The position numbers were made by a program, and so were the translations under genes. A stretch of DNA of 32,000 nt from Kiritimatiella glycovorans. GTDB taxonomy: Bacteria; Verrucomicrobiota; Kiritimatiellia; Kiritimatiellales; Kiritimatiellaceae. Below, piece by piece: positions 2,740-28,489 of the stretch. The notes under the pieces are model-generated. The model ran no database searches and had not been told where the DNA came from. It was given only the letters and a program-made list of their open reading frames with translations. The stretch covers positions 270,001 through 302,000 of the forward strand of contig NZ_CP010904.1 of the NCBI RefSeq assembly GCF_001017655.1, read 5' to 3'. Position 1 is the first letter of the stretch. Every line of letters starts with the position of its first letter.

Positions 2740-3947
2740 GGTAGGTTGTAAACCCAAATGCCGCATGTAGTGGTCTTGTTTCATTTATGAGATCGTTTTG
2801 AGTTCGTTCGTGAAGAGTTCGTGAGGGGTCATGAAGTCGAGGATCCGGCGCGGGTAGTTATTGATCCATAGCTCGATGTCGCGGATTTTCTGCTTGGTAA
2901 AGCGCGCGATATCCCGGCCCTTGGCCACGAACCGTCTGATCATCCTGTTGCCGTTCTCGTTCGATCCGCGTTCCCAGGATGAGTATGGGTGGGCGTAGAA
3001 GATCTGGGTTCGCTGTTGCTTCGAGAAGGAAGAGGCTTCTAAGGCTTCGAAGTCCAGGAACTCGCTGCCGTTGTCGACCGTGATGGTCTTGAAGATCTGA
3101 CGGAAGCAGCGGGAGCCATGTTCACGCTCGAGCCCTCTGAGAACTTTGAGCACGCTGGCTTGGCTCTTATCAGGCAGCTTGCGAATGATCGTGATCCGAT
3201 GTCTGCGTTCCACCAGGGTCAATAGGGCGGCATTGGACCCGCGCGTGGGGCCGGTCACCAGGTCCATCTCCCAGTGTCCGAACTCCTCGCGCGTCTCGGC
3301 TCCTTCGGGACGCTGGTCGATGCTTTTGCCTTTGGAAATCCGCTTCGCCAACCGCCGAGCGCCGCGTTTGCGCCGCTTGGCTCGCTTACGCTTCTCCCAC
3401 AGTGACTCGTTGCTGAGCCCGAAAATGACGCCTTTATCGATGTAGTTATAGATCGTCTTGGTGCACACCACCTCCTCCAGACCGGCCTGACGCATCCGAA
3501 AGGCGACTACATCGGGCGATTCCTTATGTTCCACAATGCGGCAACGGATGAATTCGGCCAGCGCATAGTTGCGGCCCAGCCTCAGACCGGGCCCCCTTGC
3601 GGTGGCGTGGTAATCATGGAGGTCCTGGCCGCGATCGCTGCTGTAGGTCCGGTATTCCCGCCACTCCGAGTCCCGGTGGGTCACCGTCCCGCGCTTGAGC
3701 TCACGCTGGATCGTACGCGGGTGACGCTCCAAGGCGGCCGCGATGTCCCGTGGGGGGATCCCCCCACGGGACATCCGCTCAATCACCATGCGCTCCACCC
3801 TCGTCAAGTGCTTGCCCTTCCTGCTATTCTGATTCTGTTCCATGCCGTCTCCTTCCTCTGTTGTCCTGTTGTAAGACCACAAAGGATAGCGAACCACGGC
3901 ATGGAACGCTCTCTCCTATACCTGCGGCATTTCACATTACACTTCTC
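2740..3947 (-). mobile_element. IS30-family insertion sequence, about 1.2 kb, single transposase ORF
   Basis: Bounded by the 16-bp direct repeats. It has imperfect terminal inverted repeats. The left end is GGTAGGTTGTAAACCCAAATGCCGCATGTAGTGG. The reverse complement of the right end is GAGAAGTGTAATGTGAAATGCCGCAGGTATAGG. They share the cores TGTAA and AAATGCCGCA, about 23 of 34 positions. The transposase ORF fills the interior. Confidence 0.8.
2785..3843 (-). CDS. IS30 family transposase (HTH plus DDE)
   Basis: The ORF is 2785..3897. The likely start is MEQNQNSRKGKHLTRVERMVIERM, with a GGAAGGAGA RBS 6 nt upstream. There is an N-terminal HTH (RTIQRELKRG). The catalytic core contains ITVDNGSEF and FYAHPYSSWERGSNEN motifs typical of IS30-type DDE transposases. 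Confidence 0.9.
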   Translation of the reverse strand: MEQNQNSRKGKHLTRVERMVIERMSRGGIPPRDIAAALERHPRTIQRELKRGTVTHRDSEWREYRTYSSDRGQDLHDYHATARGPGLRLGRNYALAEFIRCRIVEHKESPDVVAFRMRQAGLEEVVCTKTIYNYIDKGVIFGLSNESLWEKRKRAKRRKRGARRLAKRISKGKSIDQRPEGAETREEFGHWEMDLVTGPTRGSNAALLTLVERRHRITIIRKLPDKSQASVLKVLRGLEREHGSRCFRQIFKTITVDNGSEFLDFEALEASSFSKQQRTQIFYAHPYSSWERGSNENGNRMIRRFVAKGRDIARFTKQKIRDIELWINNYPRRILDFMTPHELFTNELKTIS

Positions 3948-7367: not shown

Positions 7368-8048
7368 ATGAATCGCATCGTTATCGCCTTATGCGCTGTT
7401 TTCGTCGCTTTTCCGGTGTGCGCGGAAGAGTGGACTGAGCTGTTCAACGGCAGGGACCTCGAGGGGTGGACCGCGAAGGGCGGCGAGGCGAGCTACGAGG
7501 TCGTGGACGGCATGTTGGTCGGGACCACGAAGCCGAACACCCCGAACACCTTTCTTTGTCCCGACAGGTCATACGCCGATTTCGAGCTGCGGTTCGAGGT
7601 CAAGTGCGACCCGCAACTCAATTCCGGTATTCAGATCCGGTCCGCCGACAAGCCGAAAATGATCCCGGACGCCCTGGGGCCGGTAGTGCGCGAGAAGGCG
7701 CGCCGCCGCGTGCGCAGCGGATCGCTCTGCGGACCGCAGGTGGAGATCGCCGCCAACGGGAACGCCGGCGGACTCTGGTTCGAGGGCGTAGGCGGATGGA
7801 CGCTCAAGCCGAAGCCGGAGCTGGCGAACGAGGTGTACCAAAAGGATGGCTGGAACGAGTACCGCATCCTGGCCGACGGCCGGCGCGTCGCCGTATGGAT
7901 CAACGGCACGAAGATCAGCGATGGTCCCGACGACCGTTCCGGAATGAGCAGCGGCTATCTCGGATTCCAGGTCCACGGCGTAGGCGCCCGCAAAGACCCG
8001 TTGCGCGTGCGCTGGCGGAACATCCGCATCCGGACGCTGGACGACTGA
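7368..8048 (+). CDS. Secreted DUF1080 (3-keto-disaccharide hydrolase-like) domain protein
   Basis: Signal peptide MNRIVIALCAVFVAFPVCAEE. Typical DUF1080 motifs are LFNGRDLEGW, FELRFEVK, NSGIQIRS, GWNEYRI and YLGFQVHG. A GGGAGGA RBS is present. Confidence 0.8.
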   Translation: MNRIVIALCAVFVAFPVCAEEWTELFNGRDLEGWTAKGGEASYEVVDGMLVGTTKPNTPNTFLCPDRSYADFELRFEVKCDPQLNSGIQIRSADKPKMIPDALGPVVREKARRRVRSGSLCGPQVEIAANGNAGGLWFEGVGGWTLKPKPELANEVYQKDGWNEYRILADGRRVAVWINGTKISDGPDDRSGMSSGYLGFQVHGVGARKDPLRVRWRNIRIRTLDD

Positions 8049-8093
8049 CCGCATCCTTCGGGCTCGCCTGCTTCAATGGTGTATCGGAAGAGA

Positions 8094-8123
8094 ACCACCG
8101 ATTACACCGATCGCACGGATGAT
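8094..8123 (+). repeat. 9-nt periodic module (CACCGATTA CACCGATCG CACGGATGA) of the extragenic element family; intron-free paralogue of the group II intron insertion site
   Basis: Three 9-nt units read directly. The minus strand of 8094-8121 matches the exon sequence flanking the intron at 24 of 28 positions. Confidence 0.7.
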
Positions 8124-8151
8124 GATAAGAAGGAAAAAGGGGCAGCCCAGG

Positions 8152-8236
8152 TTGTCGGTATGGCGAAGCGGCTACGGAAATGGAAAGAGATCGGAAGCAG
8201 AGTTTCTGAAACCGGCATGACTTCGGCCTTTTCGTG
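8152..8236 (+). repeat. 85-bp direct repeat, copy 1
   Basis: 82 of 85 positions identical to 11835-11919 (TTGTCGGTATGG..GGCTACGGAAATGGAAAG.GATCGGAAGCAGAGTTTCTGAAACCGGCATGACTTCGGCCTTTTCGTG). Confidence 0.9.
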
Positions 8237-8275
8237 TTCACCCTTGTCCCTTTTCGCTCACCCTCCCCCTGGTCC

Positions 8276-8345
8276 GTGAGGCTTCCCGCCCACTAAAACC
8301 CTGAAGATGCAGGGAAGACATGACGCAACTGGGCGGGCCTCTCAC
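8276..8345 (+). other. Nested inverted repeat / hairpin upstream of the antitoxin gene
   Basis: GTGAG..CCCGCCCA (8276-8292) pairs with TGGGCGGG..CTCAC (8330-8345). The loop contains a second hairpin, CCCTG-aagatg-CAGGG. Confidence 0.4.
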
Positions 8346-8459
8346 CTCGGCCGCCGAGTATAGAATACGCTGACCTGACAGCCGAATTTGGGCAAAAGAT
8401 AAGCTTGAATACCATGCCCGACGTGGTTCAGTTCCAAAGTAATCAAGCGTGAGGTGACT

Positions 8460-8687
8460 ATGCCAAGCACAGCCGAGATCATACACGAAGCGGAGTCCCT
8501 GCCCGTGGAGGAACGTGCGGTCGTGGTCGACTCTCTATTGCGTTCCCTCAATCCCCCGGACCCGGAGATCGACCGGAAATGGGCGGCTGTCGCCAAACGG
8601 CGACTTGATGAACTCCGTTCAGGCCGCGTCAAGCCCGTCCCGGGAGAGGAAGTTTTCGCAGAGATCCGCCAGCGATTCGCGGTATGA
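8460..8687 (+). CDS. Type II antitoxin, putative addiction-module component (TIGR02574-like)
   Basis: 75 aa: MPSTAEIIHEAESLPVEERAVVVDSLLRSLNPPDPEIDRKWAAVAKRRLDELRSGRVKPVPGEEVFAEIRQRF. The pattern (LP.EER...L..SL....DPE.D..W..E..RR..E..SG....P.EEVF) is the one I recall for this antitoxin family. A GTGAGG RBS is present. The stop overlaps the next ATG (ATGA). Confidence 0.7.
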   Translation: MPSTAEIIHEAESLPVEERAVVVDSLLRSLNPPDPEIDRKWAAVAKRRLDELRSGRVKPVPGEEVFAEIRQRFAV

Positions 8688-8712
8688 CATTCTCTTTCCA
8701 TCCTGTAAGCAG
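8684..8712 (+). pseudogene. Remnant N-terminus of a RelE/ParE-type toxin (MTFSFHPVS...), truncated by AT-rich DNA
   Basis: It is translationally coupled to the antitoxin. M..F.FHP is the usual start of the RelE/ParE partners of this antitoxin family. Base composition drops sharply after about 8712, and the rest of the toxin fold is absent. Confidence 0.4.
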
Positions 8713-8899
8713 GGGAGGTTGTAAAATGTACTGTAGAAAAACAAGCCCTATTAGTTACTTCGTCATAGCAGCCTTATTCAGCTTATTAGTGTTTGTGTCA
8801 TTTGGAATATCATCCTGGTTATTCAGCGGTAAATGGTGTGGTGGCATGGATTGGCGGGATTTAATTACTAAGTCGGAAAGAGAAATGATATTAGAATAA
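8684..8899 (+). CDS. Chimeric small ORF: toxin remnant fused in frame to a hydrophobic single-helix peptide (an internal ATG at 8726 is an alternative start)
   Basis: 71-aa ORF. Residues 20-45 (ISYFVIAALFSLLVFVSFGISSWLF) form a predicted TM helix. The DNA is AT-rich, about 38% GC in the 60-nt line I counted. No family was recognised. Confidence 0.35.
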   Translation: MTFSFHPVSRGGCKMYCRKTSPISYFVIAALFSLLVFVSFGISSWLFSGKWCGGMDWRDLITKSEREMILE

Positions 8900-8974
8900 T
8901 GCGGATTAAGTAGGCACTGCAGTGATGAAAGATTTTATGGATCTGTATGTGATTACTTAGTCAATAGAATCATT

Positions 8975-9427
8975 ATGAATCCTGAAAATGGTGATTTTGA
9001 TGAGGATCTTCTACTGCGGTTTAAATCCTATTGTGCCACGCGAAAAGGGGAGGAAGACGAGTACAGAGCCGGTCTTTCCTATACTTTAGCGACGATGCTT
9101 CTCAAGGCCAACAAAAAGCGGTCTGAATGCAGGCGGGAACTTGATCACGTAGAATCTGCGGATTATTCTTTTTATAAATATGGGAAGCCGGCTCGGCCTC
9201 TATCCAATCGCGATGGACATCATGCAGGGGATTCTGATTGGGCGGAAGAGTGGCGGGAATACTATCGTGATCAGGAATTCCGGCGACGGAGGAATATGCG
9301 TAATGTGTCGGAGGTGAAGCGGTTCAGGGGACAGTGTATAAATGGCCGAGGGGAGGACTATGTTAGTCAGAAAAAAAGTGAATGGAATAGATATTTAAAT
9401 GAAATAATAGTGAATAGTAGAAATTAA
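8975..9427 (+). CDS. Hypothetical protein in the AT-rich cassette (150 aa, charged, no family recognised)
   Basis: Longest ORF in the low-GC stretch. It is a hydrophilic protein rich in E, R and K (MNPENGDFDEDLLLRFKSYC...). I recognised no similarity to any family. Confidence 0.5.
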   Translation: MNPENGDFDEDLLLRFKSYCATRKGEEDEYRAGLSYTLATMLLKANKKRSECRRELDHVESADYSFYKYGKPARPLSNRDGHHAGDSDWAEEWREYYRDQEFRRRRNMRNVSEVKRFRGQCINGRGEDYVSQKKSEWNRYLNEIIVNSRN

Positions 9428-9545
9428 ATAAATCAGTAGCATCCTATAGGGCCCCATATCGGGGCATAGAGCTTGTGGCGGGACAGAAGGGTCCGCCTAA
9501 TGCATTATTGGCGATTGGAAAGGATCGTTGATGTTTTTCATGTTC

Positions 9546-9828
9546 AGTTTTTGAGAAGGCGGTCGCGAATAGAAAGTCGTTCGGGGAAAAGGGCGGGGTG
9601 CGGAAGATCAGGGAAAGCGTAGAATCGAGATCGTGGGGAGAGAATGGGATTCACCATGAAGGCCATGAAGAGCATGAAGGGGTGAACACAATTCGTACTC
9701 TTACTCGTACGCGTACTCGGAGCGCCGAAGGCGCGATCCCCCTCCCCGTGTTCAAGGAACTCGAGTACGAATTATGTTCTCTCTGAATCCCGATTTCGAG
9801 TTCCCATCCGTGTCCTCGGTGTAATCCG
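9546..9828 (+). repeat. Composite extragenic element: purine-rich 6-nt periodic tract, 3 x 9-nt block, GTAC-rich palindromic core, then an inverted 9-nt module interrupted by the intron
   Basis: An AGTTTTTGAG start at 9546. ATGAAGGCC ATGAAGAGC ATGAAGGGG at 9656-9682. Perfect 11-bp arms AATTCGTACTC (9690-9700) and GAGTACGAATT (9763-9773) enclose the hairpin GCGCC-GAA-GGCGC (9722-9734). About 62 of 68 aligned positions are identical to 22604-22671. Confidence 0.75.
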
Positions 9829-10306
9829 GTGCGCCAAGCAAAGCTTGGCTGTTTCTAACTGAATGAAAGGAGTCAGTCGTGTGAATTGATCGTTGCACAT
9901 GTAGCCGACCCAGCGGTGATCGGGGGTAACCCCGGCGTCGAAGCCTGGGAAGGCGAACGCGTGAGCCGTAGCGAAAGCGAACTTGATTCAGCCTCGTTAC
10001 ACAAGCCGAGGGCGGCCAGCCTATCGGATATGATGAAGCCAGCACTTGTCGGGAAGGAACGGTCATAAGCACCGGCAAGGCCCTCCGGGGTAACAAGAGA
10101 CGGCGCGCGCAGAAAGAACAGCCAGGAACTTGGGAGGCCCGCCGTGATGTCGGGTAAGCCGACAAGCCCGTGGGGGAATCAATAACCTCGGGGGTGATCG
10201 CGTGCGGGAGTCGGAGAGGCTCGTAGTAGTGATGAAGCGGGGTAATGCCCGTGGAGCGAAGGGGTCTCGGCGGAAGACGAGCTGAGTAAGAAGCGCGGGG
10301 GACTGA

Positions 10307-11650
10307 TTGGTGAAACCTATGACAGAAGAAGCGACGGAGTACTATCGCATTGACGACAGACTCTTGCCGCCGAAACTCGCCGCGCTGAGACAGAAGCTGA
10401 GTCAGAAGGCCAAACAGGAGAAGCGGTTTCGCTTCTACAGTCTCTATGGCCACATTGGCCGGGCCGACACTCTGCTGGCGGCATGGAAACATGTACGCGC
10501 CAACGGCGGAAAAGAAGGCCCCGATGGTGTGACCATCGAGGACATCGAACAGAGTCAAGGAGGAGTCGAAGCCTTCTTGGCGGATATTGAACGCAGCCTG
10601 AAGGATCGAACCTACCGTGCTGGAAAAGTGCGGCGGGTCTACATCCAGAAGGTGAACGGGAAACTCCGTCCCTTGGGAATACCCTCGGTGCGGGATCGGG
10701 TCGTGCAGACCGCTACGGTTCTGATATTGGAACCGATCTTTGAAGCTGACTTCAAGGATTGCTCCCATGGGTTCCGGCCTGAGCGCTCGGCGCATGATGC
10801 GTTGAAGGCGATTGGACAGGAGCTCCGGCAAGGGCGGTGTGCGGTGTATGATGCGGATCTGGCCGGCTATTTCGACAGTATTCCACACGACAAGCTCATC
10901 GCTTGTGTGCAGATGCGTGTCACCGACCGGTCCGTGCTGAAGCTGATCCGAATGTGGCTGAAAGCGCCGGTAGAGGAAACGGAGAAAGGCAAACCGCCGA
11001 CCGTGAAGCGCAACGACAAGGGCACGCCGCAAGGCGGGGTCATTTCGCCGCTTCTGGCCAACATCTATCTGCACTGGTTCGATGCGGTGTTTTACCGCAA
11101 AGACGGACCGGCACGGTGGGCGAAGGCCAAACTGGTGAGGTACGCCGATGACTTCGTGGTCCTCGCCCGGTATATCGGTCCGCAACTCGAAGCGTTCATC
11201 GAAGCCAAGATAGAAGGGTGGCTCGGGCTGAAGATCAACCGGGACAAGACCCGGATACTCGATGCTCGGGAACCGGGGCAGACGCTGGACTTTCTCGGAT
11301 ATAGCTTCCGCTATGACCGGGACCTCGGCGGACGCCCGTGCCGGTACTGGAACCTGACACCGTCGCGGAAAGCGCTCCAACGGGAACGTGATCGGCTTCG
11401 GGAGATGACCGGACCGGAACAATGCTTCAAACCTCTGCCGACGGTGATCGACGAACTCAACATGCAAATGCGAGGATGGGCAAACTACTTCTCGCTGGGT
11501 TATCCGCGTGTGGCATTCCGCCACGTCAATGGATACGTGCGACAGCGTCTCACGCGACATGCGAAACGACGCAGTCAGCGCGGCTACTGGCCCCCTGAAG
11601 GTATGAGCTACTACGCGCATTTCAAGAACATGGGACTGATCTACCTGTGA
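10307..11650 (+). CDS. Group II intron reverse transcriptase/maturase (no endonuclease domain evident)
   Basis: RT motifs [54 protein letters not shown] and the YADD box ([11 protein letters not shown]). The C-terminal X/maturase region has RGWANYF. The ORF opens at TTG 10307; ATG 10319 (MTEEATEYY) is the likelier start. Confidence 0.93.
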
Positions 11651-11676
11651 AACCATCCAACAAATGCCTTCCGCGA

Positions 11677-11709
11677 GAGCCGGATGCGGGAAATCCGCAT
11701 GTCCGGTTC
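11677..11709 (+). ncRNA. Group II intron domain V (catalytic hairpin)
   Basis: GAGCCGGAUGCGGGAAAUCCGCAUGUCCGGUUC. It has the AGC triad, a 2-nt bulge on the 3' strand, a GAAA-type loop and a canonical length of 33-34 nt. Confidence 0.8.
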
Positions 11710-11834
11710 GACGAGGGGGAGGGCAGTCCGCGGTCATTGGCTATACGCCTCTCATCCCGTGGCTCCCTCTCTACTCTACTGGTCGAAAACACAAGAAAGG
11801 TCTTACTTACAGGGGTCCGATCCCGTTTAGTTTA

Positions 11835-11919
11835 TTGTCGGTATGGGGAGGCGGCTACGGAAATGGAAAGGGATCGGAAGCAGAGTTTCTGAAACCGGCA
11901 TGACTTCGGCCTTTTCGTG
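11835..11919 (+). repeat. 85-bp direct repeat, copy 2
   Basis: 82 of 85 positions identical to 8152-8236. Confidence 0.9.
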
Positions 11920-11941
11920 CGCCTGATGGTTCTGCCGTCCG

Positions 11942-12265
11942 TCAGAGGTCCAGCTGCGTCGCGACTGCCTGCGCAACACGCTCCATATCGGCGGGCGATA
12001 GTGCTCCTGATTTCTTGATCAGGCGTTTCTTGCTGACCGTGGTCAACTGATCTGCCATCGCCTTGGATCGGTTGCTGCGGTACGTCACGTATGCTTCGCT
12101 TGGGTAGAGCTTTCCGGTTGAACTTGTCAGCGGCACGACTTGCACACGATTCAGAAATCTGTTGGCCGCGTCGTTGCTGACGATGACGGCCGGACGCTGC
12201 TTGCGTATCTCCCCGCCGACTGAGGGATCGAAGTTGATCCACCAGACTTCAGCTCTCTTCATCAC
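11942..12265 (-). CDS. Type II toxin, MazF/PemK family endoribonuclease
   Basis: MMKRAEVWWINFDPSVGGEIRKQRPAVIVSND...VVPLTS...AMADQLTTVSKKRL. This is the canonical PemK/MazF signature. The gene overlaps the upstream antitoxin gene by 17 nt. Confidence 0.88.
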   Translation of the reverse strand: MMKRAEVWWINFDPSVGGEIRKQRPAVIVSNDAANRFLNRVQVVPLTSSTGKLYPSEAYVTYRSNRSKAMADQLTTVSKKRLIKKSGALSPADMERVAQAVATQLDL

Positions 12266-12479
12266 TCACGTCCCCGCAGGTCGACTCTGCCCACTCCAGA
12301 GCTTCAGATTCCCGGACGCGGTCTGCACCCATGGTGCGGTAGCCCTCGTACAAGTCTTTCTCCAGCACATGCGGCCGCACGAGATCCTCCACGAAGTGGC
12401 TTATCTTGCGCGGGCCAACGACCCGCCGCAGGCCATCGTACACCTCCTCGTCAATCGTAAGAGTCAGCTTTTTCCGCAT
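12249..12479 (-). CDS. Cognate antitoxin (MazE-like partner, probable RHH-type N-terminus)
   Basis: 76 aa. The N-terminus MRKKLTLTIDEEVYDGLRR is typical of small DNA-binding antitoxins, and the C-terminus is acidic. It sits immediately upstream of the MazF-family gene and overlaps it. An AGAGG RBS is present. Confidence 0.7.
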   Translation of the reverse strand: MRKKLTLTIDEEVYDGLRRVVGPRKISHFVEDLVRPHVLEKDLYEGYRTMGADRVRESEALEWAESTCGDVSDEES

Positions 12480-12508
12480 TGAACATCACCTCTTTTGTGT
12501 TTACACGT

Positions 12509-12537
12509 ATAATACACGTGCACGGTGGGTGCGTCAA
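12509..12537 (-). promoter_or_regulatory. Candidate sigma70-type promoter with operator repeats for the mazEF-like operon
   Basis: The minus strand reads TTGACG - 17 nt - TATTAT. ACGTGT hexamers lie on both sides of the -10 (ACACGT at 12503-12508 and 12514-12519 on the plus strand). The -10 is about 30 nt upstream of the antitoxin ATG. Confidence 0.5.
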
Positions 12538-12694
12538 AAGGGGAAAGGTTCCAGATCTGCAGCCCAAGTGCTTTCGCGGCATCGAGGGAGGAGTTCTTTG
12601 TCTGCCCCCCTCGATTCGCGCCGGATATGACCGCAATGGAATATCACCGCTCCCGCATCTTCCGCGACTGATCGCTGGCGGCGGAGGTGGGTTA

Positions 12695-12767
<73 letters not shown>

Positions 12768-12774
12768 GCGCGAG

Positions 12775-12803
12775 AATGTAAGGATTCCGTTCGGAGGATG
12801 CAA
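12775..12803 (-). promoter_or_regulatory. Candidate sigma70-type promoter of tRNA-Lys
   Basis: The minus strand reads TTGCAT - 17 nt - TACATT, then 7 nt to the first tRNA base. Confidence 0.5.
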
Positions 12804-12815
12804 CCCGGAAGGGGG

Positions 12816-13060
12816 GAGTTTTTTGAGTGGGAGGGTGTTTTGAGTGGGAGGGCTGAAACCTGAAACCTGAGTAAGAAGTTAGAGTCAGAATCAGAGTCAG
12901 AGTCAGAATCAGAGTCAGAGTAAGAGTAAGAGGGAGTGAGAAGCCTGAGTTTTTGAGTGGGAGGGCTGAGACCTGAAACCTGAGTAAGAAGTTAGAGTCA
13001 GAATCAGAATCAGAGTCAGAGTAAGAGGGAGTGAGAAGTCTGAGTTTTTGAGTGGAGAAT
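12816..13060 (+). repeat. Tandem repeat block: units of about 95-112 bp (GAGTTTTTGAGTGGGAGGGCTGA.ACCTGAAACCTGAGTAAGAAGTTAG...), each containing a variable hexamer array (AGTCAG/AATCAG/AGTAAG)
   Basis: Unit starts were read at about 12816 (short unit), 12836, 12947 and 13042 (truncated). Unit 1 has 8 hexamers before AGGGAG and unit 2 has 5. The plus strand is strongly purine-rich. Confidence 0.85.
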
Positions 13061-13065
13061 AAGAG

Positions 13066-13132
13066 CTATCGGAATCGAGTTTCACTGCAGAGATCACAGA
13101 ACACGGAAAGAGCAGAGAACATTTTGATTCCG
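13066..13132 (+). repeat. TTCAC / 9-nt periodic module closed by a GGAATC...GATTCC stem
   Basis: CTATCGGAATCGAG-TTTCACTGCAGAGATCACAGAACACGGAAAGAGCAGAGAACAT-TTTGATTCCG. It parallels CTATCGAAATCGGG-CTTCACCACAGAGAACAT-GATTCG at 22571-22608. Confidence 0.65.
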
Positions 13133-13139
13133 GCGCGGC

Positions 13140-16100
13140 TCATTCGTCCAGCGTTTCGCGGACGCGTTCGGCGAGGGTCTGAATGGAGAAGGGTTTGGGG
13201 ATGAAGCGGACGCCTTCGTCCAGCACGTGGTGGTGGGCGATGGCGTTGGCGGTGTAGCCGGACATATAGAGCACCTTGATCCCGGGGTGCAGGCGCTGAA
13301 CTTTTCCGGCCAGGTCCTTGCCGCTCATGCCGGGCATCACCACGTCGGTCAGCATCAGATCGACCTGTTCGTTGTGGTCTGCGAGCACGGTCAGCGCTTC
13401 ATCCCCGCCGTGCGCCGTGAGTACCTCGTATCCGAGCTGAGCCAGCATCGTCGATCCGAACTGTAAAACGGAGGTGTCGTCTTCGACGAGCAGGATCGTC
13501 TCGCCGCCGCGGGGGGCCTGCCGGTCGTCCTCCGACGGGGTGTGTTCGGCGGCGTCGCCTTTGTGACGAGAGAGATAGATTCTGAAGGTCGTACCCTCTT
13601 CGGGTTCGCTGTAGACGTTGATGAATCCGTTGTTCTGCTTCACGATCCCGAATACCGTGGCCAGCCCCAGGCCGGTGCCTTCGCCGACGCCCTTGGTGGT
13701 GTAGAACGGATCGAAGATGTGTTCCCGGGTCTCCTCGCTCATCCCGCAGCCGTTATCGCTTACCCCCAGCATCACGTAGTCGCCCGGTTTGAATCCGGGA
13801 TGCTCGTCGCAGTAGGTCTCGTTAAACGAGACGTTTCGCGTCTCGATCGTGACCATGCCCACCCCGTCGATCGCATCGCGCGCGTTCACGCAGAGGTTGG
13901 CCAGAATCTGGTCGATCTGGGTGGGATCGAGGTTGACGGGCCACAGCTTCTCCGACGGCTGCCAGGCGAGGTCGATATCCTCGCCGATCAGGTGGCGCAG
14001 CATCTTCAGCATCCCCGTGATGGTGTCGTTGAGGCTGATCACTCTGGGGACGATGGTCTGGCGGCGCGCGAAGGCGAGGAGCTGGCGCGTGAGGTCCGCG
14101 GACCGCTCCGCGGCGCGGCGCAGTTCCTCGAGGTGCTCGCGCAGCTCGAGATGGTCGCCGGCCTCGGCCAGCGCCAGTTCAGCGTACCCCATGATCGACT
14201 GCAGCTTATTGTTGTAGTCGTGCGCGACGCCACCTGCCAGGCGGCCGATCGACTCCATCTTCTGGGCCTGGCGGTACTGGTTTTCCAGTGCGATCTCGCT
14301 GGTGATGTCCCGCTTGACGGCCACGTAATTGACGATGTTTCCGCGCGGGTCCAGTACCGGCGAGATGGTGGCCTCTTCCGTATACTGCGTCCCGTCTTTA
14401 CGCTGGTTGACGAAGTTTCCCTGCCACGTCCGCCCTTCCGTAATCGTGGCCCAAAGGGTCTCGTAGAAGGCCCGGTCGTGTTTCCCGCTCTTGTGGATGG
14501 CGGGGGTCTTCCCGAGGGCCTCGTCGCGGGAGTAGCCGGTGACCCGTTCGAACGCGGGATTCATATAGAGGTAGTGCGCGTCCGCATCAGTGACGACGAT
14601 GCTTTCCTCGGTATGCTCGATCGCGGTCATCAGCCGTTCCAGTTCCATTTCGCGCTTCCGGCGTGCGGTGATGTCCGTAGTGAACCCGTCGATCGTGAAC
14701 GGGCCGTCCTCGCGCCGACCCGAGATGCGTGCGTTCATCGAGAGCCATAGCTCTTTCCCCCCTTCGCCGCGGGCCTCATATTCGAAGTTTTCCACGTGTC
14801 CGTGTTTTTTCAGCAGGTGGAGGAATTCGGCCCTTCGTTCGGGACGGGCGTAGAGTTCGGCCCCCAGGTCCCGGAGTTCTTCGACGGCCTGCCGCCCCGA
14901 GTGAAACCCAAGCATCCGGGCCATGGCCGGGTTGGCGGCGAGGACATTCCCGACCGAGGTGGTGGTAAAGATCCCGATCGGCGCCGTCTCGAAGAGGGTT
15001 CGGAATCGCTGTTCGCTTTCCTCCAGCGCCTCGCGCGCGCGCCGTTCCTCGGTCTGGTCGCGGAAGACGAGCACGACGCCCGATACGGTTCCTGCGTCAT
15101 CACAGATCGGCGCGCCGGAGTCGGCGATCGGGCGTTCGGTGCCGTCGCGGGCGACCAGGACGGTATGGTTCGCGAGCCCCGCCACCTTATTCTCGCGCAG
15201 CACGCGGTCGACGGGATTCTCGACCTCCGCGCGCGTATGTTCGTTGACGATCTGAAAGATGTCGTGGAGATCCCGCCCCAGAACCTCGTCCTGTGTCCAG
15301 CCGGTGAGGGTCTCGGCCACGGCATTCACCAGTTCGATGCGGCCTTCCGCGTCCGTCACGATAACCCCGTCGCCGATACTGCGCAGGGTGGTCCCGTAGC
15401 GCGTTTCGCTGCGCCTTCTCGCGCGCTCCGCCTCGTAGCGCGCGCGGTAGTGGAGCTTCCGTGAGCGCTGGACGACCACGTAGCCGCCGATGACCACCCC
15501 CGCGGCGAGCCCCAGCGTCAGCAGAAAGACCATCAGCGTCTCGCGGCGCATGGTGGCGAAGGCCTCGGCGGTGTCGATTTTGGCGACCATGGCCCAGGGG
15601 GAGTCAGGAATAGTCCGCGTCACCGAGAGCACATCCTCGCCGCGGTAATCCTTTCCGCGCATCACGCCCGAGTATCCCTGCAGCGCCCGGGTCGCCGGGA
15701 GGTTGGTGCGGCTCATCGGCAGCCGGAAGTTCAGCGCGGTATTTTCCCGGTGGCGGAGTTCGTTCAGGAACAGGACCTGGTCCCCTTGCCGCCTGACCAG
15801 GACGATCTCGGCGGTCTCGCTCGGCGTGGGCCAGGACTGGATGAGCGGGTAGAGGTAATCGCGGGCGTCGCAGATGAGGATCACGGCGCCGAACGGGGGG
15901 GCGTCTTCGCCGTGATCCGGGAAGAGCGGGGCCACGACGCTCAGGTGGGGGGTATCGACGAGCTGGCCGCGGTGCATGCCCAGGATTTCCGGCCTGCGTT
16001 CGCGGGCGGCCAGCCGGAACGTATCGCGCGCGGCCTCCAGGTTGGACGCCGGCCACTCGCCGAGGCGGAAGCGCACCCGGAGATTGGTGTCCACGAGCAG

Positions 16101-16683: not shown

Positions 16684-18393
16684 TTGAGCAACAACGACGA
16701 CTACATAGTGGAAATCCTTCAGAACGTGGGGATGATCGACCAGGGCAAGGGGGATGAGGCGCTTCAGACCGCGCGCAGCCAGGACAAGGATGTCGTCGAT
16801 GTGCTCTGCCGGGACACCGACCTCTCCGAAGAGGACATTCTGAAGACGCTGGCGCACCAGTTCGGGATGGAGACCCTCTCGCTCCGCGAGCAGGATATCC
16901 CGCAGGAGACGCTGGACATGGTTTCCGGCGAGGTGGCGCACCGTTACCGGATCATTCCCGTCTCGCTGAGCGGCGACACGCTGACGGTGGCGCTGGCCGA
17001 TCCCCTCGACATCGAGACGCTGGACAGTCTGCGTTACATCCTCAAACGCAATGTCGAAGGCGTGGTCACGACCTCGGAGGAGATCGAGATCGCGCTTTCG
17101 CAGTATTATCCGGATACCGGGCCGGGCATGGATTCGATGATGGAGGAGATCACCGAGGGCTCCATCCAGATGCCCTCCGAATCGCAGCGCAACATCATCG
17201 ACGAGGCCGAGGTTTCCGAGTCCGACGAGCCGATCATCAAGCTGGTGAACCTGATCATCCTGGAGGCCTTCCGGAACCGCGCCTCCGACATACACCTCGA
17301 GCCTCTGAGCCGCAAGTTCCGCGTGCGCTACCGGATTGACGGCGTATTGCAGGAGGTGGAGGGGCCTCCGCGCCGGCTGCATCCCACGGTGATCAGCCGG
17401 ATCAAGATCATGGCCGACATGAAGATATCCGAGAAGCGGCTCCCGCAGGACGGCCGTATCGCGATCAACGTCATGGGTCGCGAGCTGGACCTGCGCGTGT
17501 CCTCGATTCCCTCCAACCACGGCGAGAGCATCGTCATGCGTATCCTCGACAAGGAAGGCCTGATGCTCGGTCTGCCCAAACTCGGATTCTTTTCGGACGA
17601 CCAGCAGCGGTTCGAGCGGCTCATCTCGCTGCCCGACGGCATTCTCCTGGTCACGGGTCCCACGGGTTCGGGGAAGACCACCACGCTCTACGCCTGCCTG
17701 AACTACGTCAACCGCCCGGACCGCAAGATCATCACCGTGGAGGACCCGGTCGAATACCAGCTTTCCGGGATCAACCAGGTCCAGGTGCGCAGCGATATCG
17801 GGCTGACGTTCGTAGGCGCGCTGCGTTCGATCCTGCGCCAGGCGCCCAACATCATCATGATCGGGGAGATCCGCGACTACGAGACGGCCGAAATCGCCGT
17901 GGGGGCCTCGCTGACCGGTCACCTCGTGTTCAGCACGCTGCATACCAACGACGCGCCGAGCGCGATTCCGCGTATGATCGACATGGGCGTGAAGCCGTTT
18001 CTGGTCGCCTCGTCCACGCGCGCGATCATGGCGCAGCGGCTGGTGCGGCGGGTGTGCGATTCCTGTAAGGAAGAGTATGAGCCGACCGAGACCGAACTGA
18101 ACATGCTCGGGCCGGCGGCGAGCCAGGTGAAGGGGGCCAGTCTCTACCGCGGGCGCGGGTGCAGTCACTGCAGCAACACCGGGTACCGCGGCCGCGTCGG
18201 CATTTTCGAGATTTTCGAGATCAACGACGAAGTGCGCGAAATGGTCGACACGGAGATCAGCGCCTCCGAGTTACGGATCAAGGCCCGCGAGCTGGGCATG
18301 CGCAGTCTGCGCGAGGACGGCATTCGCAAGGCGCTGGCGGGGAACACGACGCTGGACGAGGTGTTCCGTGTGACGATGGGAGATCTCGACTGA
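16684..18393 (+). CDS. GspE/PilB-family secretion/pilus assembly ATPase (paralogue 1)
   Basis: 569 aa, TTG start. It has a T2SSE_N-type N-terminal domain (YRIIPVSLSGDTLTVALADPLD), Walker A GPTGSGKTTTLYA, Asp/His boxes, Walker B IIMIGEIRD and a tetracysteine motif (CDSC...CSHC). Confidence 0.9.
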   Translation: MSNNDDYIVEILQNVGMIDQGKGDEALQTARSQDKDVVDVLCRDTDLSEEDILKTLAHQFGMETLSLREQDIPQETLDMVSGEVAHRYRIIPVSLSGDTLTVALADPLDIETLDSLRYILKRNVEGVVTTSEEIEIALSQYYPDTGPGMDSMMEEITEGSIQMPSESQRNIIDEAEVSESDEPIIKLVNLIILEAFRNRASDIHLEPLSRKFRVRYRIDGVLQEVEGPPRRLHPTVISRIKIMADMKISEKRLPQDGRIAINVMGRELDLRVSSIPSNHGESIVMRILDKEGLMLGLPKLGFFSDDQQRFERLISLPDGILLVTGPTGSGKTTTLYACLNYVNRPDRKIITVEDPVEYQLSGINQVQVRSDIGLTFVGALRSILRQAPNIIMIGEIRDYETAEIAVGASLTGHLVFSTLHTNDAPSAIPRMIDMGVKPFLVASSTRAIMAQRLVRRVCDSCKEEYEPTETELNMLGPAASQVKGASLYRGRGCSHCSNTGYRGRVGIFEIFEINDEVREMVDTEISASELRIKARELGMRSLREDGIRKALAGNTTLDEVFRVTMGDLD

Positions 18394-19472: not shown

Positions 19473-19496
19473 CATGGCCTACACGAGGTGAACGAC

Positions 19497-21221
19497 ATGC
19501 CGGACTCGACATTCCAGATTGAAGACCCGCTTCTGCAGCAGCTCCACGACGAAGGCAAGCTGCGGCCGGAGCAGTGCGAGGAGATTTTCGACGAGCACGA
19601 GCGGACCGGGAAATCCATCCGCAACGTGGTGCTCGACATGGAGGCCCTCAAGGAAGAGGACTATCTGAAAGCGGTCGCGAACCACCTCGGCTGCGAGATG
19701 ACGCATGTCGACCAGGAGATCGATCCCAAGCTGATCAAGTCCGTCCCCGTGGGCGTGGCCCGCATGTACAACGTCATCCCGTACCGGGCCGACGACGAGA
19801 CCGTGACGCTGGCCGTCTGCGACGTTCCCAGCCCCGCCGCGGTGGATGAACTGCTCTTCGTGCTCTCCCGCGACGTCTCGTTCGTCGTGGCTCCGCACGA
19901 GGACATCGAGGCCGCGATGACCCGCTACTACGGCGAGGAGAGCGGGTCCGTCAACGACCTGCTCTCGGCGCTGGAATCGGAGCTGGAGGAGACCGGCGAC
20001 CGTGTCGAAAACCGTTCCATCGACGCAGACACGGTCGACCTCGAAGACCTCCAGGAGGCCGCCAGTTCGGCCCCGGTCATCCGCTTCGTCAACCTGGTGC
20101 TCTACCAGGCGGTGAAGGACCGCGCCTCGGACGTCCACTTCGAGCCGTTCGAGGACGAGTTCAAGATCCGCTACCGGGTCGACGGCGCGCTGTACGAGAT
20201 GTCGCCGCCTCCGAAACACCTGGCGCTGCCGATCATTTCCCGCGTCAAGGTGATCGCGGGACTGAACATCGCCGAGCACCGGCTTCCGCAGGACGGGCGC
20301 ATCCAGCTCAACGTCGCCGGGTCCACCATCGACTTCCGCGTGTCGTCGCTTCCCACCCAGTTCGGCGAAAGCGTGGTGCTGCGTATTCTGGACAAGACCA
20401 ACGTCTCGCTCGATCTCGACAACATCGGGCTCCCGGAGGACATCTACGACAGTTTCACCGACGACATCGAGAAGCCGAACGGGATCATTATCGCCACCGG
20501 TCCGACGGGGTCCGGAAAGACGACCACGCTCTATTCCGCGATGCGCCGCGTCAACAGCATCGACCGCAAACTGCTGACGGCGGAGGATCCGGTGGAATAC
20601 GATATGGAGGGGATCATTCAGGTGCCCATCAACGAGGGGATCGGGCTGAGCTTCGCCGGGATTCTCCGAAACTTCCTGCGCCAGGACCCCGACATAATCC
20701 TCGTGGGGGAGATCCGCGATCTCGAAACCGCACAGATCGCCATTCAGGCGTCGCTGACCGGTCACCTCGTGTTCAGTACGCTGCACACCAACGACGCGCC
20801 CGGAGCCATCACGCGCCTGATCGATATGGGCGCCGAGCCCTTCCTGATCTCATCGACGCTCGAAGGGGTGATCGCGCAGCGGCTGATCCGTACGATCTGT
20901 CCCGGCTGCAAGAAGCCGTACACCCCCGAAGACGCGCTGCTCGAGGAGTTGAATCTCAGCCGCGCCGATGTGGGCGACAATCCGTTCTATTTCGGGGAGG
21001 GCTGCAACATGTGCAACTTCACCGGCTACCGGGGACGGCGCGGGATTTTCGAATACCTGCGAATGAATGAGCCGCTGCGCGAGCTGGTGAATCAGCGCAG
21101 CGCGACGGTGAAACTGCGCAACAAGGCCACCGAGCTGGGTATGCGGACCTTGCGCGAAGACGGAATCCGGTGCATTCTGGACGGGTATACGACACCGGAC
21201 GAGGTTTTGCGTTATACGTAA
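19497..21221 (+). CDS. GspE/PilB-family pilus assembly ATPase (paralogue 2)
   Basis: 574 aa from ATG 19497, with a GAGG RBS 8 nt upstream; the ORF opens at GTG 19488. It has a T2SSE_N domain (YNVIPYRADDETVTLAVCD), GPTGSGKTTTLYS, ILVGEIRD and CPGC...CNMC. Confidence 0.9.
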   Translation: MPDSTFQIEDPLLQQLHDEGKLRPEQCEEIFDEHERTGKSIRNVVLDMEALKEEDYLKAVANHLGCEMTHVDQEIDPKLIKSVPVGVARMYNVIPYRADDETVTLAVCDVPSPAAVDELLFVLSRDVSFVVAPHEDIEAAMTRYYGEESGSVNDLLSALESELEETGDRVENRSIDADTVDLEDLQEAASSAPVIRFVNLVLYQAVKDRASDVHFEPFEDEFKIRYRVDGALYEMSPPPKHLALPIISRVKVIAGLNIAEHRLPQDGRIQLNVAGSTIDFRVSSLPTQFGESVVLRILDKTNVSLDLDNIGLPEDIYDSFTDDIEKPNGIIIATGPTGSGKTTTLYSAMRRVNSIDRKLLTAEDPVEYDMEGIIQVPINEGIGLSFAGILRNFLRQDPDIILVGEIRDLETAQIAIQASLTGHLVFSTLHTNDAPGAITRLIDMGAEPFLISSTLEGVIAQRLIRTICPGCKKPYTPEDALLEELNLSRADVGDNPFYFGEGCNMCNFTGYRGRRGIFEYLRMNEPLRELVNQRSATVKLRNKATELGMRTLREDGIRCILDGYTTPDEVLRYT

Positions 21222-22533: not shown

Positions 22534-22712
22534 GTGGAATCAGAGTAAGTGGGAGTGGGAATCGCTGTCGCTATCGAAATCGGGCTTCACCACAGAGAAC
22601 ATGATTCGTACGCGTACTCGGAGCGCAGGAGGCGCGATCCCACTCCCCCGATTCAAGGAACTCGAGTACGAGTACCGCTTCGCTGAGTACGAGCACGAGT
22701 ACGAGTACGATA
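22531..22712 (+). repeat. Composite extragenic element, second full copy (purine-rich hexamer tract, TTCAC module, palindromic core, GTACGA-type hexamer array)
   Basis: TGAGTGGAATCAGAGTAAGTGGGAGTGGG starts at the pilC stop. CTTCACCACAGAGAACAT lies at 22585-22602. The core 22604-22671 aligns to 9691-9771, and hexamers GAGTAC/GAGCAC/GAGTAC run to about 22710. Confidence 0.75.
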
Positions 22713-26531: not shown

Positions 26532-28241
26532 TCATTCCGAGGTGACCCTCAAGATTTCCTCCACGGTCGACACCCCTGCGCGCACGCGGTTCAGGCCCAT
26601 TTCGCGCAGGGTGACCATGCCGTTCCGGACCGCCGCCTCGCGCAGCGCCCCGGCCTCGGTGGTCTGGAGGATCAGTTTCTTGAGATCTTCGTTCAGCAGC
26701 ATGATTTCCATCAGCGCCCCGCGGCCCTTGTAGCCGATGTTGTTGCACTTGGGGCAGCCTACGGCCGTGTAGAAGTCGGAGTCCGCAAACTCGTCCGGAT
26801 CGAGGTGGTTGCGGCGGAGGATGTCTTCGGGGAGTGCGATCTTTTTTCTGCACACGGGACAGAGTTTGCGGAAGAGGCGCTGGGCCTGCGTCATGAGCAG
26901 CGAGGAGGAGAGCATGAACGGCTCGATGCCCATGTAGGCCAGGCGCGCGACCGCCCCGGGGGCGTCGTTGGTGTGAAGCGTGCTCAGCACCAGGTGGCCG
27001 GTCAGCGCGGCCTGCACCGCGATCCCCGCCGTCTCCGCGTCGCGGATCTCGCCGATCAGCACGATGTCCGGATCCTGGCGCAGGATCGAGCGCAGACCGG
27101 CGGCGAAGGTGAGACCCACGTTCGGGTCGGCCTGGACCTGGTTGATCCCCCCGAGCTGGTATTCGACGGGGTCCTCGACCGTGATGATATTGACGTCCTG
27201 GTTGTTGAGGTCCTGCAGCGCGGAGTAGAGGGTGGTGGTCTTGCCGCTGCCGGTCGGTCCCGTGATGCAGATCATCCCGTGCGGTTGACTGATGGCGTAA
27301 CACAGGTTCTCGTAGGCCTTTTCCTCCAGGCCGAGCGACTCCAGACTGGGCGCGAGGGCGCTCTTGTCGAGGATGCGCATCACGATCTTTTCGCCGTGCA
27401 CGGTGGGCAGGAAGCTGATGCGCATGTCCACTTCCTTGCCCAGTGCGCGGATCTTGAACCGGCCGTCCTGCGGTTTACGCCGCTCGGCGATGTCCAGGTT
27501 GGACATGATCTTCAGCCGCGAGGTGATCGCGGGCTGCAGACTCTTCGGGGGGCTCGGATTCTGATGCAGTACGCCGTCGATGCGGTACCGCAGCCGCAGC
27601 GCTTTTTCCATCGGCTCGACGTGGATATCGCTGACGCCCTTGCGCAGCGCCTCGATCAGGATCGAGTTCACGATGCGGATCACCGGCGCGTCTTCGGCGA
27701 TTTCCAGCATCTCGTCGAGATTGACGTCCTCGGCCTGGTTCTGGCCCAGCTCCACCTCGCTCTCGTCCGCCATGTCCTTGAGAATGTCCTCGAGCCCCTG
27801 CCCGGACTCCTCCTCGGACTGCTGGTTGAGCGCCCGCATGATCTCGGCTTCCTCGGCCACGACGGGTACGACGCTCATTTCCGTCTCGGCCTCCACCTTC
27901 TCGGTCTGCAGCACGTTGAAGGGATCGGCGACGGCCACCGTCAGCGTCCTGCCGGTCTTGGCGAGCGGGAGCATCTTCAGTCGACCCCACATCTCCGTGG
28001 GCAGAAGATTGAGCAGCGTCTCGTCGGCTCTGAACTGGGCCAGCGAGATCGGCGGCGACTGAAGATAGTCGGCGTAGGCGAGCACGAGATCCGCGGAGGA
28101 GAGCACATTGCGCTCGACCAGGATCTGCTCCAGCGGTTTGTGCTGCTCGTCGGCGGCCCGGCGGGCGTCTTCAATCACGGCGTCTTCAAGACGGCACCGT
28201 TCCTGAAGTGTTCTTGCGAGACTTTTGCCCTGTGATATCAT
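26532..28241 (-). CDS. GspE/PilB-family secretion ATPase (paralogue 3)
   Basis: The ORF extends to 28523, but the family-consistent start is MISQGKSLARTL at 28241, with an AGAAGG RBS. It is 569 aa with a T2SSE_N domain (LKMLPLAKTGRTLTVAVADPFN), GPTGSGKTTTLYS, VLIGEIRD and CPVC...CPKC. Confidence 0.9.
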   Translation of the reverse strand: MISQGKSLARTLQERCRLEDAVIEDARRAADEQHKPLEQILVERNVLSSADLVLAYADYLQSPPISLAQFRADETLLNLLPTEMWGRLKMLPLAKTGRTLTVAVADPFNVLQTEKVEAETEMSVVPVVAEEAEIMRALNQQSEEESGQGLEDILKDMADESEVELGQNQAEDVNLDEMLEIAEDAPVIRIVNSILIEALRKGVSDIHVEPMEKALRLRYRIDGVLHQNPSPPKSLQPAITSRLKIMSNLDIAERRKPQDGRFKIRALGKEVDMRISFLPTVHGEKIVMRILDKSALAPSLESLGLEEKAYENLCYAISQPHGMICITGPTGSGKTTTLYSALQDLNNQDVNIITVEDPVEYQLGGINQVQADPNVGLTFAAGLRSILRQDPDIVLIGEIRDAETAGIAVQAALTGHLVLSTLHTNDAPGAVARLAYMGIEPFMLSSSLLMTQAQRLFRKLCPVCRKKIALPEDILRRNHLDPDEFADSDFYTAVGCPKCNNIGYKGRGALMEIMLLNEDLKKLILQTTEAGALREAAVRNGMVTLREMGLNRVRAGVSTVEEILRVTSE

Positions 28242-28347
28242 AAGGAACCTTCTCTCACTTATGCGAAGTATATCGCCGCGGTGCAAGCGGTAAAAAAATA
28301 TCCCGTCGGCTGACCCGGGTCCGCCGCTCCGCCTGACAGGGAATATT

Positions 28348-28363
28348 AGCAGGATGCGTTCCA
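28348..28363 (-). promoter_or_regulatory. Candidate sigma54 (-24/-12) promoter for the gspE-gspF-sensor-regulator operon
   Basis: The minus strand reads TGGAAC-GCATC-CTGCT. GG and GC are at the consensus spacing of TGGCAC-N5-TTGCW. It lies about 105 nt upstream of ATG 28241 and is near-identical in form to the site at 30920. Confidence 0.55.
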
Positions 28364-28489
28364 GACTGCGAAAGGGAAACGAACCGGGCGGCGGATGGCA
28401 CCCCGTGGCCGCCGCGCACGATTTCTGCTGGAGAGAGAACGGAATGATGCGTGCGCCGCCTGCGGACGGCGCGCAACCTGGAGAACGCC

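Follow-up and report, generated by a model that had tools for sequence, protein, structure and literature searches.

A complete group II intron of 1951 nucleotides (nt) interrupts a short repeat of 9-nt units in Kiritimatiella glycovorans (NCBI RefSeq assembly GCF_001017655.1, contig NZ_CP010904.1), of which we analysed the 32,000 nt between positions 270,001 and 302,000 of the forward strand; this whole stretch is referred to as the window, and coordinates are counted from its first letter. The intron lies at 9829–11779 on the plus strand and carries its open reading frame (ORF) in domain IV. Together with its relatives, it very probably belongs to a clade that has homed, almost throughout, into extragenic repeats with a 9-nt period, through pairing of three exon-binding sites (EBS1, EBS2 and EBS3) with the matching intron-binding sites (IBS1, IBS2 and IBS3) in the exons, the pairings being adapted to the repeat units of the respective host. 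The parts of the intron, including its reverse transcriptase (RT) and the domains seen in the minimum free energy (MFE) fold, are as follows.

9829–11779, plus strand: group II intron, IIB-type, with 5′ GTGCG and 3′ CTAC (Rfam RF02005 and RF00029)
9869–10101, plus strand: domain I core, which holds the EBS2 and EBS1 loops (Rfam RF02005, group-II-D1D4-6)
9997–10002, plus strand: EBS2, UUACAC, pairing with GUGUA(A) at 9819–9824; an unpaired internal-loop segment in the Rfam alignment
10025–10029, plus strand: EBS1, CGGAU, pairing with AUCCG at 9824–9828; a hairpin loop in the Rfam alignment
10093, plus strand: EBS3, the A at intron position 265, pairing with T11780, where the 3′ exon begins
10319–11650, plus strand: intron-encoded protein, RT and maturase, 443 amino acids (aa) from ATG or 447 aa from TTG at 10307
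11677–11709, plus strand: domain V, with a 5-nt terminal loop GAAAU (RF00029 alignment and MFE fold)
11713–11779, plus strand: domain VI, long (67 nt), with bulged branch-point A11773 (MFE fold)

We confidently identify 9829–11779 as a group II intron that is intact. Its first bases are GTGCG (from 9829) and its last are CTCTACTCTAC (up to 11779), in agreement with the group II termini 5′ GUGYG and 3′ AY, and it possesses domains V and VI, EBS1 and EBS2 within domain I, and a protein with RT and maturase parts. The domain V/VI model RF00029 matched 11675–11779 with 50.5 bits (gathering score 40), the end of the model falling on the last intron base, and RF02005 was matched over its full length at 9869–10101 (73.6 bits, E-value 6e-19, gathering score 49). 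In a comparison with the locus L001, 90.6% identity over 1007 nt stops exactly at 11779. The MFE fold of 11675–11779 (z-score −4.2) closes domain V with GCGG-GAAAU-CCGC, a 5-nt loop kept in relatives, and leaves A11773, the seventh nucleotide from the 3′ end, as the sole unpaired nucleotide of domain VI, which reaches up to about 150 nt in relatives of the L003 type. Both the model end and the fold bear out the boundaries and the bulged A that had been proposed in the initial annotation. The ORF is unbroken with an intact YADD motif, and its product has thousands of homologues in a large protein collection; a Pfam scan gave RVT_1 (3.6e-32, residues 109–329) and GIIM (2.2e-13, residues 354–422) only, hence no DNA-binding/endonuclease domain.

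The complementarity between the 5′ exon and EBS1 plus EBS2 amounts to 10–11 contiguous nucleotides. The initial annotation had claimed ten of these, with 9819–9828 complementary to 9998–10002 (UACAC against GUGUA at 9819–9823) and 10025–10029, and this proved correct; the Rfam structural alignment, moreover, places EBS1 and EBS2 exactly there, and the covariation described below agrees. The separate pairing of EBS3 with the first nucleotide of the 3′ exon, the structural mark of class IIB, is present as well.

The exons that flank the intron belong to a repeat module rather than to a gene. No credible ORF spans the spliced exon junction, as had been anticipated, and the module and the element next to it comprise the following features.

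9802–9828, minus strand: 5′-exon part of the interrupted module, CGGATTACA CCGAGGACA CGGATGGGA, with IBS2 at 9819–9823/4 and IBS1 at 9824–9828
11780–11790, minus strand: 3′-exon part of the module, with IBS3 at T11780 and the head TGGTCGAAAAC, which in reverse complement is TTTTCGACCA
9645–9795, unstranded: palindromic repeat element adjoining the module (Tandem Repeats Finder, period 9; repeat family D6; fold)

When joined, the exons read CATCCGTGTCCTCGGTGTAATCCG followed by TGGT. In reverse complement this gives ACCA-CGGATTACA-CCGAGGACA-CGGATG, in agreement with the 9-nt module recognised earlier; in module sense, the interrupted repeat is thus TTTTCGACCA, the insertion point, and then CGGATTACA CCGAGGACA CGGATGGGA. 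The lag-9 score of the 5′ exon at 9802–9828 is 11/18, and scores of 11 or more occur in 1.3% of the background. The adjoining element at 9645–9795 holds a further 9-nt array (three times CCATGAAGG, 9654–9684) and a 66-nt repeat copy at 9705–9770 that matches 22606–22671. A second exact copy of IBS1, ATCCG followed by T, occurs at 9806–9811 (plus strand), 18 nt or two units further upstream in the array; by analogy with the upstream 5′ splice sites of the Geobacter intron Ge.ur.I1-1 (see below), it could serve as another register for 5′ splicing or insertion.

An intron-free paralogue of the module is found at 8094–8121 on the minus strand, CATCCGTGCGATCGGTGTAATCGG followed by TGGT, and is identical to the joined exons at 24 of 28 positions, as first noticed in the initial annotation. 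IBS2 and IBS3 are intact in it, and IBS1 is matched at 4/5 positions, the single mismatch being a G·G at −2. With no more than one mismatch allowed, the 11-nt core GTGTAATCCGT occurs in the window only at the occupied site and in this paralogue, with 0.31 occurrences expected; the 27-nt module pattern with up to three mismatches is found in the window only at the occupied site, the paralogue differing at four positions. The earlier proposal that 8097/8098 is an unoccupied homing site therefore holds in so far as the site is uninterrupted, but it is suboptimal and on the strand opposite to the occupied one, and a perfect site exists elsewhere, in the relative L168. From its sequence, the paralogue appears to be a real though suboptimal homing site.

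Relatives of the intron were collected by searching with its protein against contigs representing one genome per species, metagenome contigs and the large protein collection; their boundaries were set by BLAST and motifs, and agreed with RF00029 for the loci L003, L161 and L168. They form a clade with 59–92% protein identity. Most of them lie on contigs of about 2 kb, which is to be expected of an element whose many copies break assemblies, and labelled metagenome-assembled genomes (MAGs) that carry them were assigned to Verrucomicrobiota, Desulfobacteraceae, Syntrophobacterales, a ‘delta proteobacterium’ and one Anaerolineales bin. The 3′ end CTACTCTAC is common to all clade members and fixes their 3′ boundaries. 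At the 5′ junctions of 22 loci, a 9-nt periodic tract lies directly upstream of the intron in almost all cases, with unit sequences that vary by host (tracts ending at the junction with catcctgttgatcctgtaaatcctg, cttcgtgctcttcgtgtccttcg, cctttgcgcccttagcgtcctttg or catctgcgaaaatctgcgtaatctg). Across 32 distinct flanks, base identity at lag 9 was 0.535, against 0.25–0.29 at the other lags from 4 to 14. In 62% of 48 distinct insertion sites, the two 9-nt blocks just before the intron agreed at five or more of nine positions, compared with 6–10% at lags 6, 7 and 10–12 and with 27% at lag 8, the latter due to irregular units. The 3′ exon usually finishes the unit with TG or CG directly after the intron and continues into a head-like sequence (TGGT or TGGY among relatives), as in TGGTGAGA, TGGTTAAA and TGAGAGAA (in reverse complement TCTCACCA, TTTAACCA and TTCTCTCA, respectively). 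The expectation that further copies and relatives would lie in 9-nt modules of multicopy, extragenic nature, and not in unrelated sequence, was accordingly confirmed.

No excess at lag 9 was detected in relatives with 48% identity or less (mean maximum 10.1, against 9.6 for control lags), a set that includes rhizobial introns and Ni.ha.I1, which lies inside an IS4 transposase; the 9-nt niche is thus a property of the clade at 59–92% identity. It should be noted that in one locus with 48% identity, L005 from a Hyphomicrobiaceae MAG, the tract cagtgtgctcggtgtgcctgg resembles a 9-nt array and lies where the 5′ junction is expected, some 510 nt before the start codon of the intron protein. L005 is a possible exception, and the niche may reach further than the 59% clade.

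The exon-binding sites follow these changing targets. Around 12 variants of EBS1 were found, each fitting its own 5′ exon, among them the EBS1/IBS1 pairs CGGAU/AUCCG (window), CAGGAU/AUCCUG, CAGAU/AUCUG, CAGAGA/UCUCUG, CGAAGA/UCUUCG, CAAAGA/UCUUUG, CUGAGA/UCUCAG, CGGAGAG/CUCUCCG and CAAAAGG/CCUUUUG. On average, EBS1 paired at 5.31 of 6 positions with its own exon and at 4.38 with permuted exons, a value reached in 0 of 5000 permutations, although such counts overstate independence, the insertion sites being related by descent. EBS1 already differs between relatives with 84–92% identical proteins (CAGAU with aatctg, CGGAGAG with ctctccg, CAAAAGG with ccttttg), and its changes must therefore be many and recent. 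The signal for EBS2 sits in its 3′ triplet, which follows the exon (CAC-GTG, CGC-GCG, UAC-GUA and AAC-GUU). The EBS3 column, intron position 265, co-varies with the base at +1 (A-T or G-C) in 32 of 33 relatives, and so does EBS2 position 5, again in 32 of 33; the latter link arises from the periodicity, as −9 and +1 are the same position of the unit. Taken together, the covariation across homologues supports all three pairings.

Some contigs carry more than one copy, and others intron-free arrays. An 8.78-Mb contig, ERZ25072979, has six copies with an identical protein, of which five are in 9-nt arrays, and the distal flanks of all six differ. The protein of another intron, P0036 (76% identity), recurs unchanged on 21 contigs, and in all ten of these that were read the intron sits in an array, zero, one or two units from the array head. 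The whole 2080-nt contig L084 is a circular permutation composed of the intron 3′ end, 9 nt (TGTTCTCTG) and the intron 5′ end, which would represent two copies that occupy neighbouring 9-nt units or, with lower probability, DNA in circular form. Intron-free arrays of the unit type of the host occur in the flanks of clade loci, for example four of them in L003. In L168, whose intron protein is 84% identical to that of the window, the 14-nt homing site of the window intron, GTGTAATCCG followed by TGGT, is present in exact form and empty at 3328–3341 on the minus strand, within a four-unit CGGATNNNA array (TTTGACCA-CGGATTACA-CGGATTATA-CGGATATCA-CGGATAAGA); about 0.005 exact matches to this 14-mer would be expected by chance in the sequence searched. 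A Verrucomicrobiota copy with 68% identity, L170/L171 (about 1930–1950), has GAAAGCG in place of the 5′ GUGCG, with EBS1–3 still matching the flanks, and is probably decaying.

These records would be explained if the intron had arrived by retrohoming, that is, by reverse splicing of its RNA into DNA and subsequent reverse transcription, and had entered a short extragenic repeat of 9-nt units on its pyrimidine-rich strand. EBS1 would read the variable core of a unit (AUCCG), EBS2 the G-Y-G skeleton and tail of the preceding one (GUGUAA) and EBS3 the Y after the insertion point; two successive units would be read in this way, unit n−1 by its tail (IBS2) and unit n by both its core (IBS1) and its tail (IBS3). 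Given the 9-nt period of the target, EBS3 and position 5 of EBS2 would fall on the same position of successive units. Members of the clade (at least 59% identity) would keep this niche and retarget to the unit variant of their host by changes in EBS1, EBS2 and EBS3. As the arrays are multicopy and intergenic, insertions would do little harm and each array would offer several registers; the insertion in the window is presumably neutral. Since the protein has no endonuclease domain, cDNA synthesis would be primed from strands of the replication fork, by analogy with the Sinorhizobium meliloti intron RmInt1. Judging from its sequence, the window copy is probably still mobile and able to splice.

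A number of observations speak against such a general account. The window has a single copy of the intron. About a third of the flanks of relatives are low in periodicity, with short or irregular arrays (those of L161, L162 and L173 are poor in it), and many flanks come from 2-kb metagenome contigs. EBS1/IBS1 pairs are weak in L105, L113, L116, L100 and L104, and for the EBS2 hexamer as a whole, tested with the best of three offsets, permutation gave a marginal 102 of 5000. To these come the relatedness of the insertion sites mentioned above and the report that the EBS2-IBS2 pairing is dispensable for the self-splicing of class IIF introns in vitro (PMC3753933).

Apart from their period, the repeats of relatives have further structure. 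When the spliced targets of 14 loci were folded, eight gave a long hairpin made of a purine-rich and a pyrimidine-rich array and bounded by TCACCA...TGGTGA, with the intron in the 3′ arm, close to the base of the stem. A hairpin partner was absent at several of the 14, namely L164, L165, L003 and L096, and in the window none was found between the array at 9654–9684 and the interrupted one, which are not mutually complementary (fold z-scores of only −1.3 and −1.8). The arms of the hairpins in L168 (3326–3480) and in the 5′ flanks of L098, L114 and L087 differ by G-to-A transitions, and they pair through G·U only when the purine-rich arm is read first, as in CGGAGAGCA against CACAAAAGA of L168; this would fit a repeat element that acts at the RNA level on one strand. 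In addition, a GC-rich hairpin, GGTTGCGGCTRTGCCGCGCT, lies 10–30 nt from the array heads in L165 and L166 (3′ flanks), L107 and L114, and its conservation near arrays in unrelated contigs suggests that a larger, composite repeat element, in which the arrays form one module, is common to several phyla. The 5′ flank of L087 contains a near-perfect palindrome of about 140 nt, one arm of which has exactly one extra 9-nt unit (AAGGTCACG); the one-unit difference between the arms indicates that arrays may change their length in unit steps.

How the intron and the arrays came together could be explained otherwise. A chance ectopic insertion, which would leave the link between intron and module without general meaning, is extremely improbable: group II introns do retrotranspose ectopically, the 11-nt target core is short and the window has one copy, but the 48 insertion sites of relatives from several phyla are enriched for 9-nt arrays, EBS1, EBS2 and EBS3 co-vary with those arrays, and distant relatives lack the signal. 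Retrohoming creates no target duplication, which makes it very improbable that the intron produced or carried the periodic arrays rather than meeting them as a pre-existing target. Copies with identical proteins, furthermore, have unrelated distal flanks and differing units, and most arrays are intron-free (those at 8094–8121 and 9654–9684 and those of L003 and L168, for example), even if the 9-nt distance between the L084 copies and the extra unit in the L087 arm would suit such an origin. Since those copies are exactly 9 nt apart and those arms differ by one unit, we also allow a small chance that arrays and intron clade are co-evolving, the arrays being kept as landing pads or grown in 9-nt steps by the intron or its RT; the clade would then be an obligate specialist, with EBS2 and EBS3 reading the same unit position in successive units.

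Another possible explanation is that targeting is guided by structure, in a manner similar to class C introns, with the DNA hairpin of the palindromic element being recognised and pairing only fine-tuning the position. The eight hairpins among 14 spliced targets point in this direction, as does a protein without endonuclease domain, which probably needs single-stranded DNA. We regard it as quite improbable, given that the window arrays are not mutually complementary and that L164, L165, L003 and L096 have no partner, that a stem would hide rather than expose IBS1 and IBS2, and that a full-length EBS1 (5–7 nt) and EBS2 co-vary with the target, unlike in class C. Somewhat different is the suggestion that homing into the module took place in the past and that the copy in the window is by now a fossil, immobile or unable to splice. 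It is a minor possibility, in line with the single copy, with surroundings that look decayed or mobile (a truncated toxin gene, a low-GC insert and toxin-antitoxin genes) and with the decay of clade members seen in L170 and L171; the unbroken ORF with its YADD motif, the relatives at 92% identity elsewhere, and canonical GUGCG, domain V, branch-point A and EBS1–3, the latter fully complementary to the flanks, argue against it. Retrohoming into the 9-nt repeats by adapted pairing remains, on the whole, the explanation that we prefer.

Among known introns, Ge.ur.I1-1, a class IIF intron of Geobacter uraniireducens, comes nearest to that of the window by its published description: both have a protein without endonuclease domain (522 aa vs 443 aa), a IIB-like RNA, a 5-nt domain V loop, a long domain VI and a non-coding location. 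In vitro, Ge.ur.I1-1 is also spliced 9 and 19 nt upstream of its canonical 5′ site, in each case behind a variant of IBS1 (AUUCG or CAUUCG, with CGUGU as IBS2); these positions were treated as cryptic binding sites of one intron, with no link to a repeat family (PMC3753933). The IBS1 and IBS2 variants imply a 9-nt periodic 5′ exon, and by analogy Ge.ur.I1-1 would be a single, unrecognised instance of the 9-nt periodic target. Geobacter genome papers list ‘multicopy nucleotide sequences’ generically, with introns unmentioned.

A 5-nt domain V loop in place of the tetraloop is a hallmark of classes IIE and IIF (PMC3753933), and the window intron combines it with further features of class F/IIF, the absence of an endonuclease region and a long, structured domain VI. 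By these hallmarks it is an IIB-type, class F-like intron, with a domain I family unlike that of Ni.ha.I1 (class F, subgroup g3), the best characterised relative of its protein (43% identity), from plasmid 1 of Nitrobacter hamburgensis. Ni.ha.I1 also has no endonuclease domain, but its domain I matches Rfam D1D4-4 and that of the window intron D1D4-6. The best rhizobial matches (42–45% identity) are of the g3 type with D1D4-4.

The class D/IIB3 intron RmInt1 of S. meliloti homes into the multicopy element ISRm2011-2 and reportedly inserts into the lagging-strand template at replication forks (PMC1802570, PMC8914252). It resembles the window intron in its lack of an endonuclease domain, its EBS1/2/3 pairing and its multicopy, dispensable target, and differs in using one long, unique site within a transposase gene and not a short, periodic, extragenic repeat. 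To our knowledge, family-wide retargeting within a repeat class has not been described for RmInt1. In the window, the GC skew is positive in eight of eight 4-kb bins; this weakly indicates that the intron has the leading-strand orientation, and the paralogue at 8094–8121 the other one. The leading-strand orientation is the one expected for insertion into the lagging-strand template, as in RmInt1.

Class C (IIC) introns insert after intrinsic terminators or into attC sites, and they share with the window clade a generic, multicopy and extragenic target that offers many harmless landing places (PMC4424553). The initial annotation had drawn this comparison, which is sound in its logic but does not extend to the mechanism: class C introns have no EBS2 and an EBS1 of 3–4 nt, recognise a DNA stem-loop and insert just downstream of it, whereas introns of the window clade have full EBS1, EBS2 and EBS3 pairing, with an EBS1 of 5–7 nt, covariation with the target and insertion inside a repeat arm. 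Membership in class C was rejected on these grounds. Nested introns of Methanosarcina acetivorans have secured perpetual harmless homing sites (PMC4424553). These and the introns of Thermosynechococcus resemble the clade in having multiple harmless sites together with EBS diversification, but they are directed at other introns or at diverse sites in the genome, and not at a periodic repeat family. The Thermosynechococcus introns reportedly proliferate via target divergence.

The intron of the window is situated in a small island of accessory DNA beside a tRNA gene. An antitoxin gene (Unstab_antitox, 8454–8687) is followed by a partner gene reduced to its first codons, the break being a low-GC (37–45%) insert at 8700–9430 with two ORFs that have no Pfam match, and a MazF/PemK toxin pair is located at 11942–12479 on the minus strand. 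An 85-nt direct repeat (8152–8236 and 11835–11919, 96% identical) lies 30–55 nt from each of the two CGGAT-type modules, which have opposite orientations relative to it. Neither the repeat modules nor the 85-nt repeat matched a known RNA family in a search of 7900–13300 against Rfam at permissive E-values. Between tRNA-Lys (12695–12767, minus strand) and the next gene, dense hexamer and 12-mer arrays (AGTCAG/AATCAG) with duplicated 77-nt blocks fill 12838–13060, and a further 9-nt-type module, TTTCACTGCAGAGATCACAGAACACGGAAAGAGCAGAGAAC, is found at about 13083–13125. Look-ups aimed at intron-free alleles, by exact match to the protein of the intron, to the MazF toxin and to the 3-keto-disaccharide hydrolase, found none of these proteins on record. 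The window also contains a pilus/secretion cluster without relation to the intron finding, with a PilC-like gene and three paralogous genes for GspE/PilB-like ATPases (16684–18393, 19488–21221 and 26532–28523, minus strand) that have 73–75% DNA identity over blocks of about 220–240 nt.

The mechanism proposed here is a known one; a lineage-wide target niche of 9-nt repeats that crosses phyla, however, was not found described in the literature searched, full-text searches for typical unit strings returned no description of the repeat family, and literature searches on group II introns together with repeats or intergenic targets returned nothing on an association between the two. A review of 2015 distinguished three target modes of bacterial group II introns, namely unique homing sites, terminators and attC sites (PMC4424553), to which the clade would add a fourth, a multicopy, periodic and extragenic repeat family read by EBS/IBS pairing. 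By analogy, the finding would also explain the alternative 5′ splice sites of Ge.ur.I1-1 at 9 and 19 nt upstream, and it accounts for the breakage of metagenome assemblies into contigs of about 2 kb at these introns. Members of the clade would be natural examples of rapid EBS reprogramming, and their insertion sites draw attention to widespread repeats that have a 9-nt period and a TCACCA-type head and are often palindromic.

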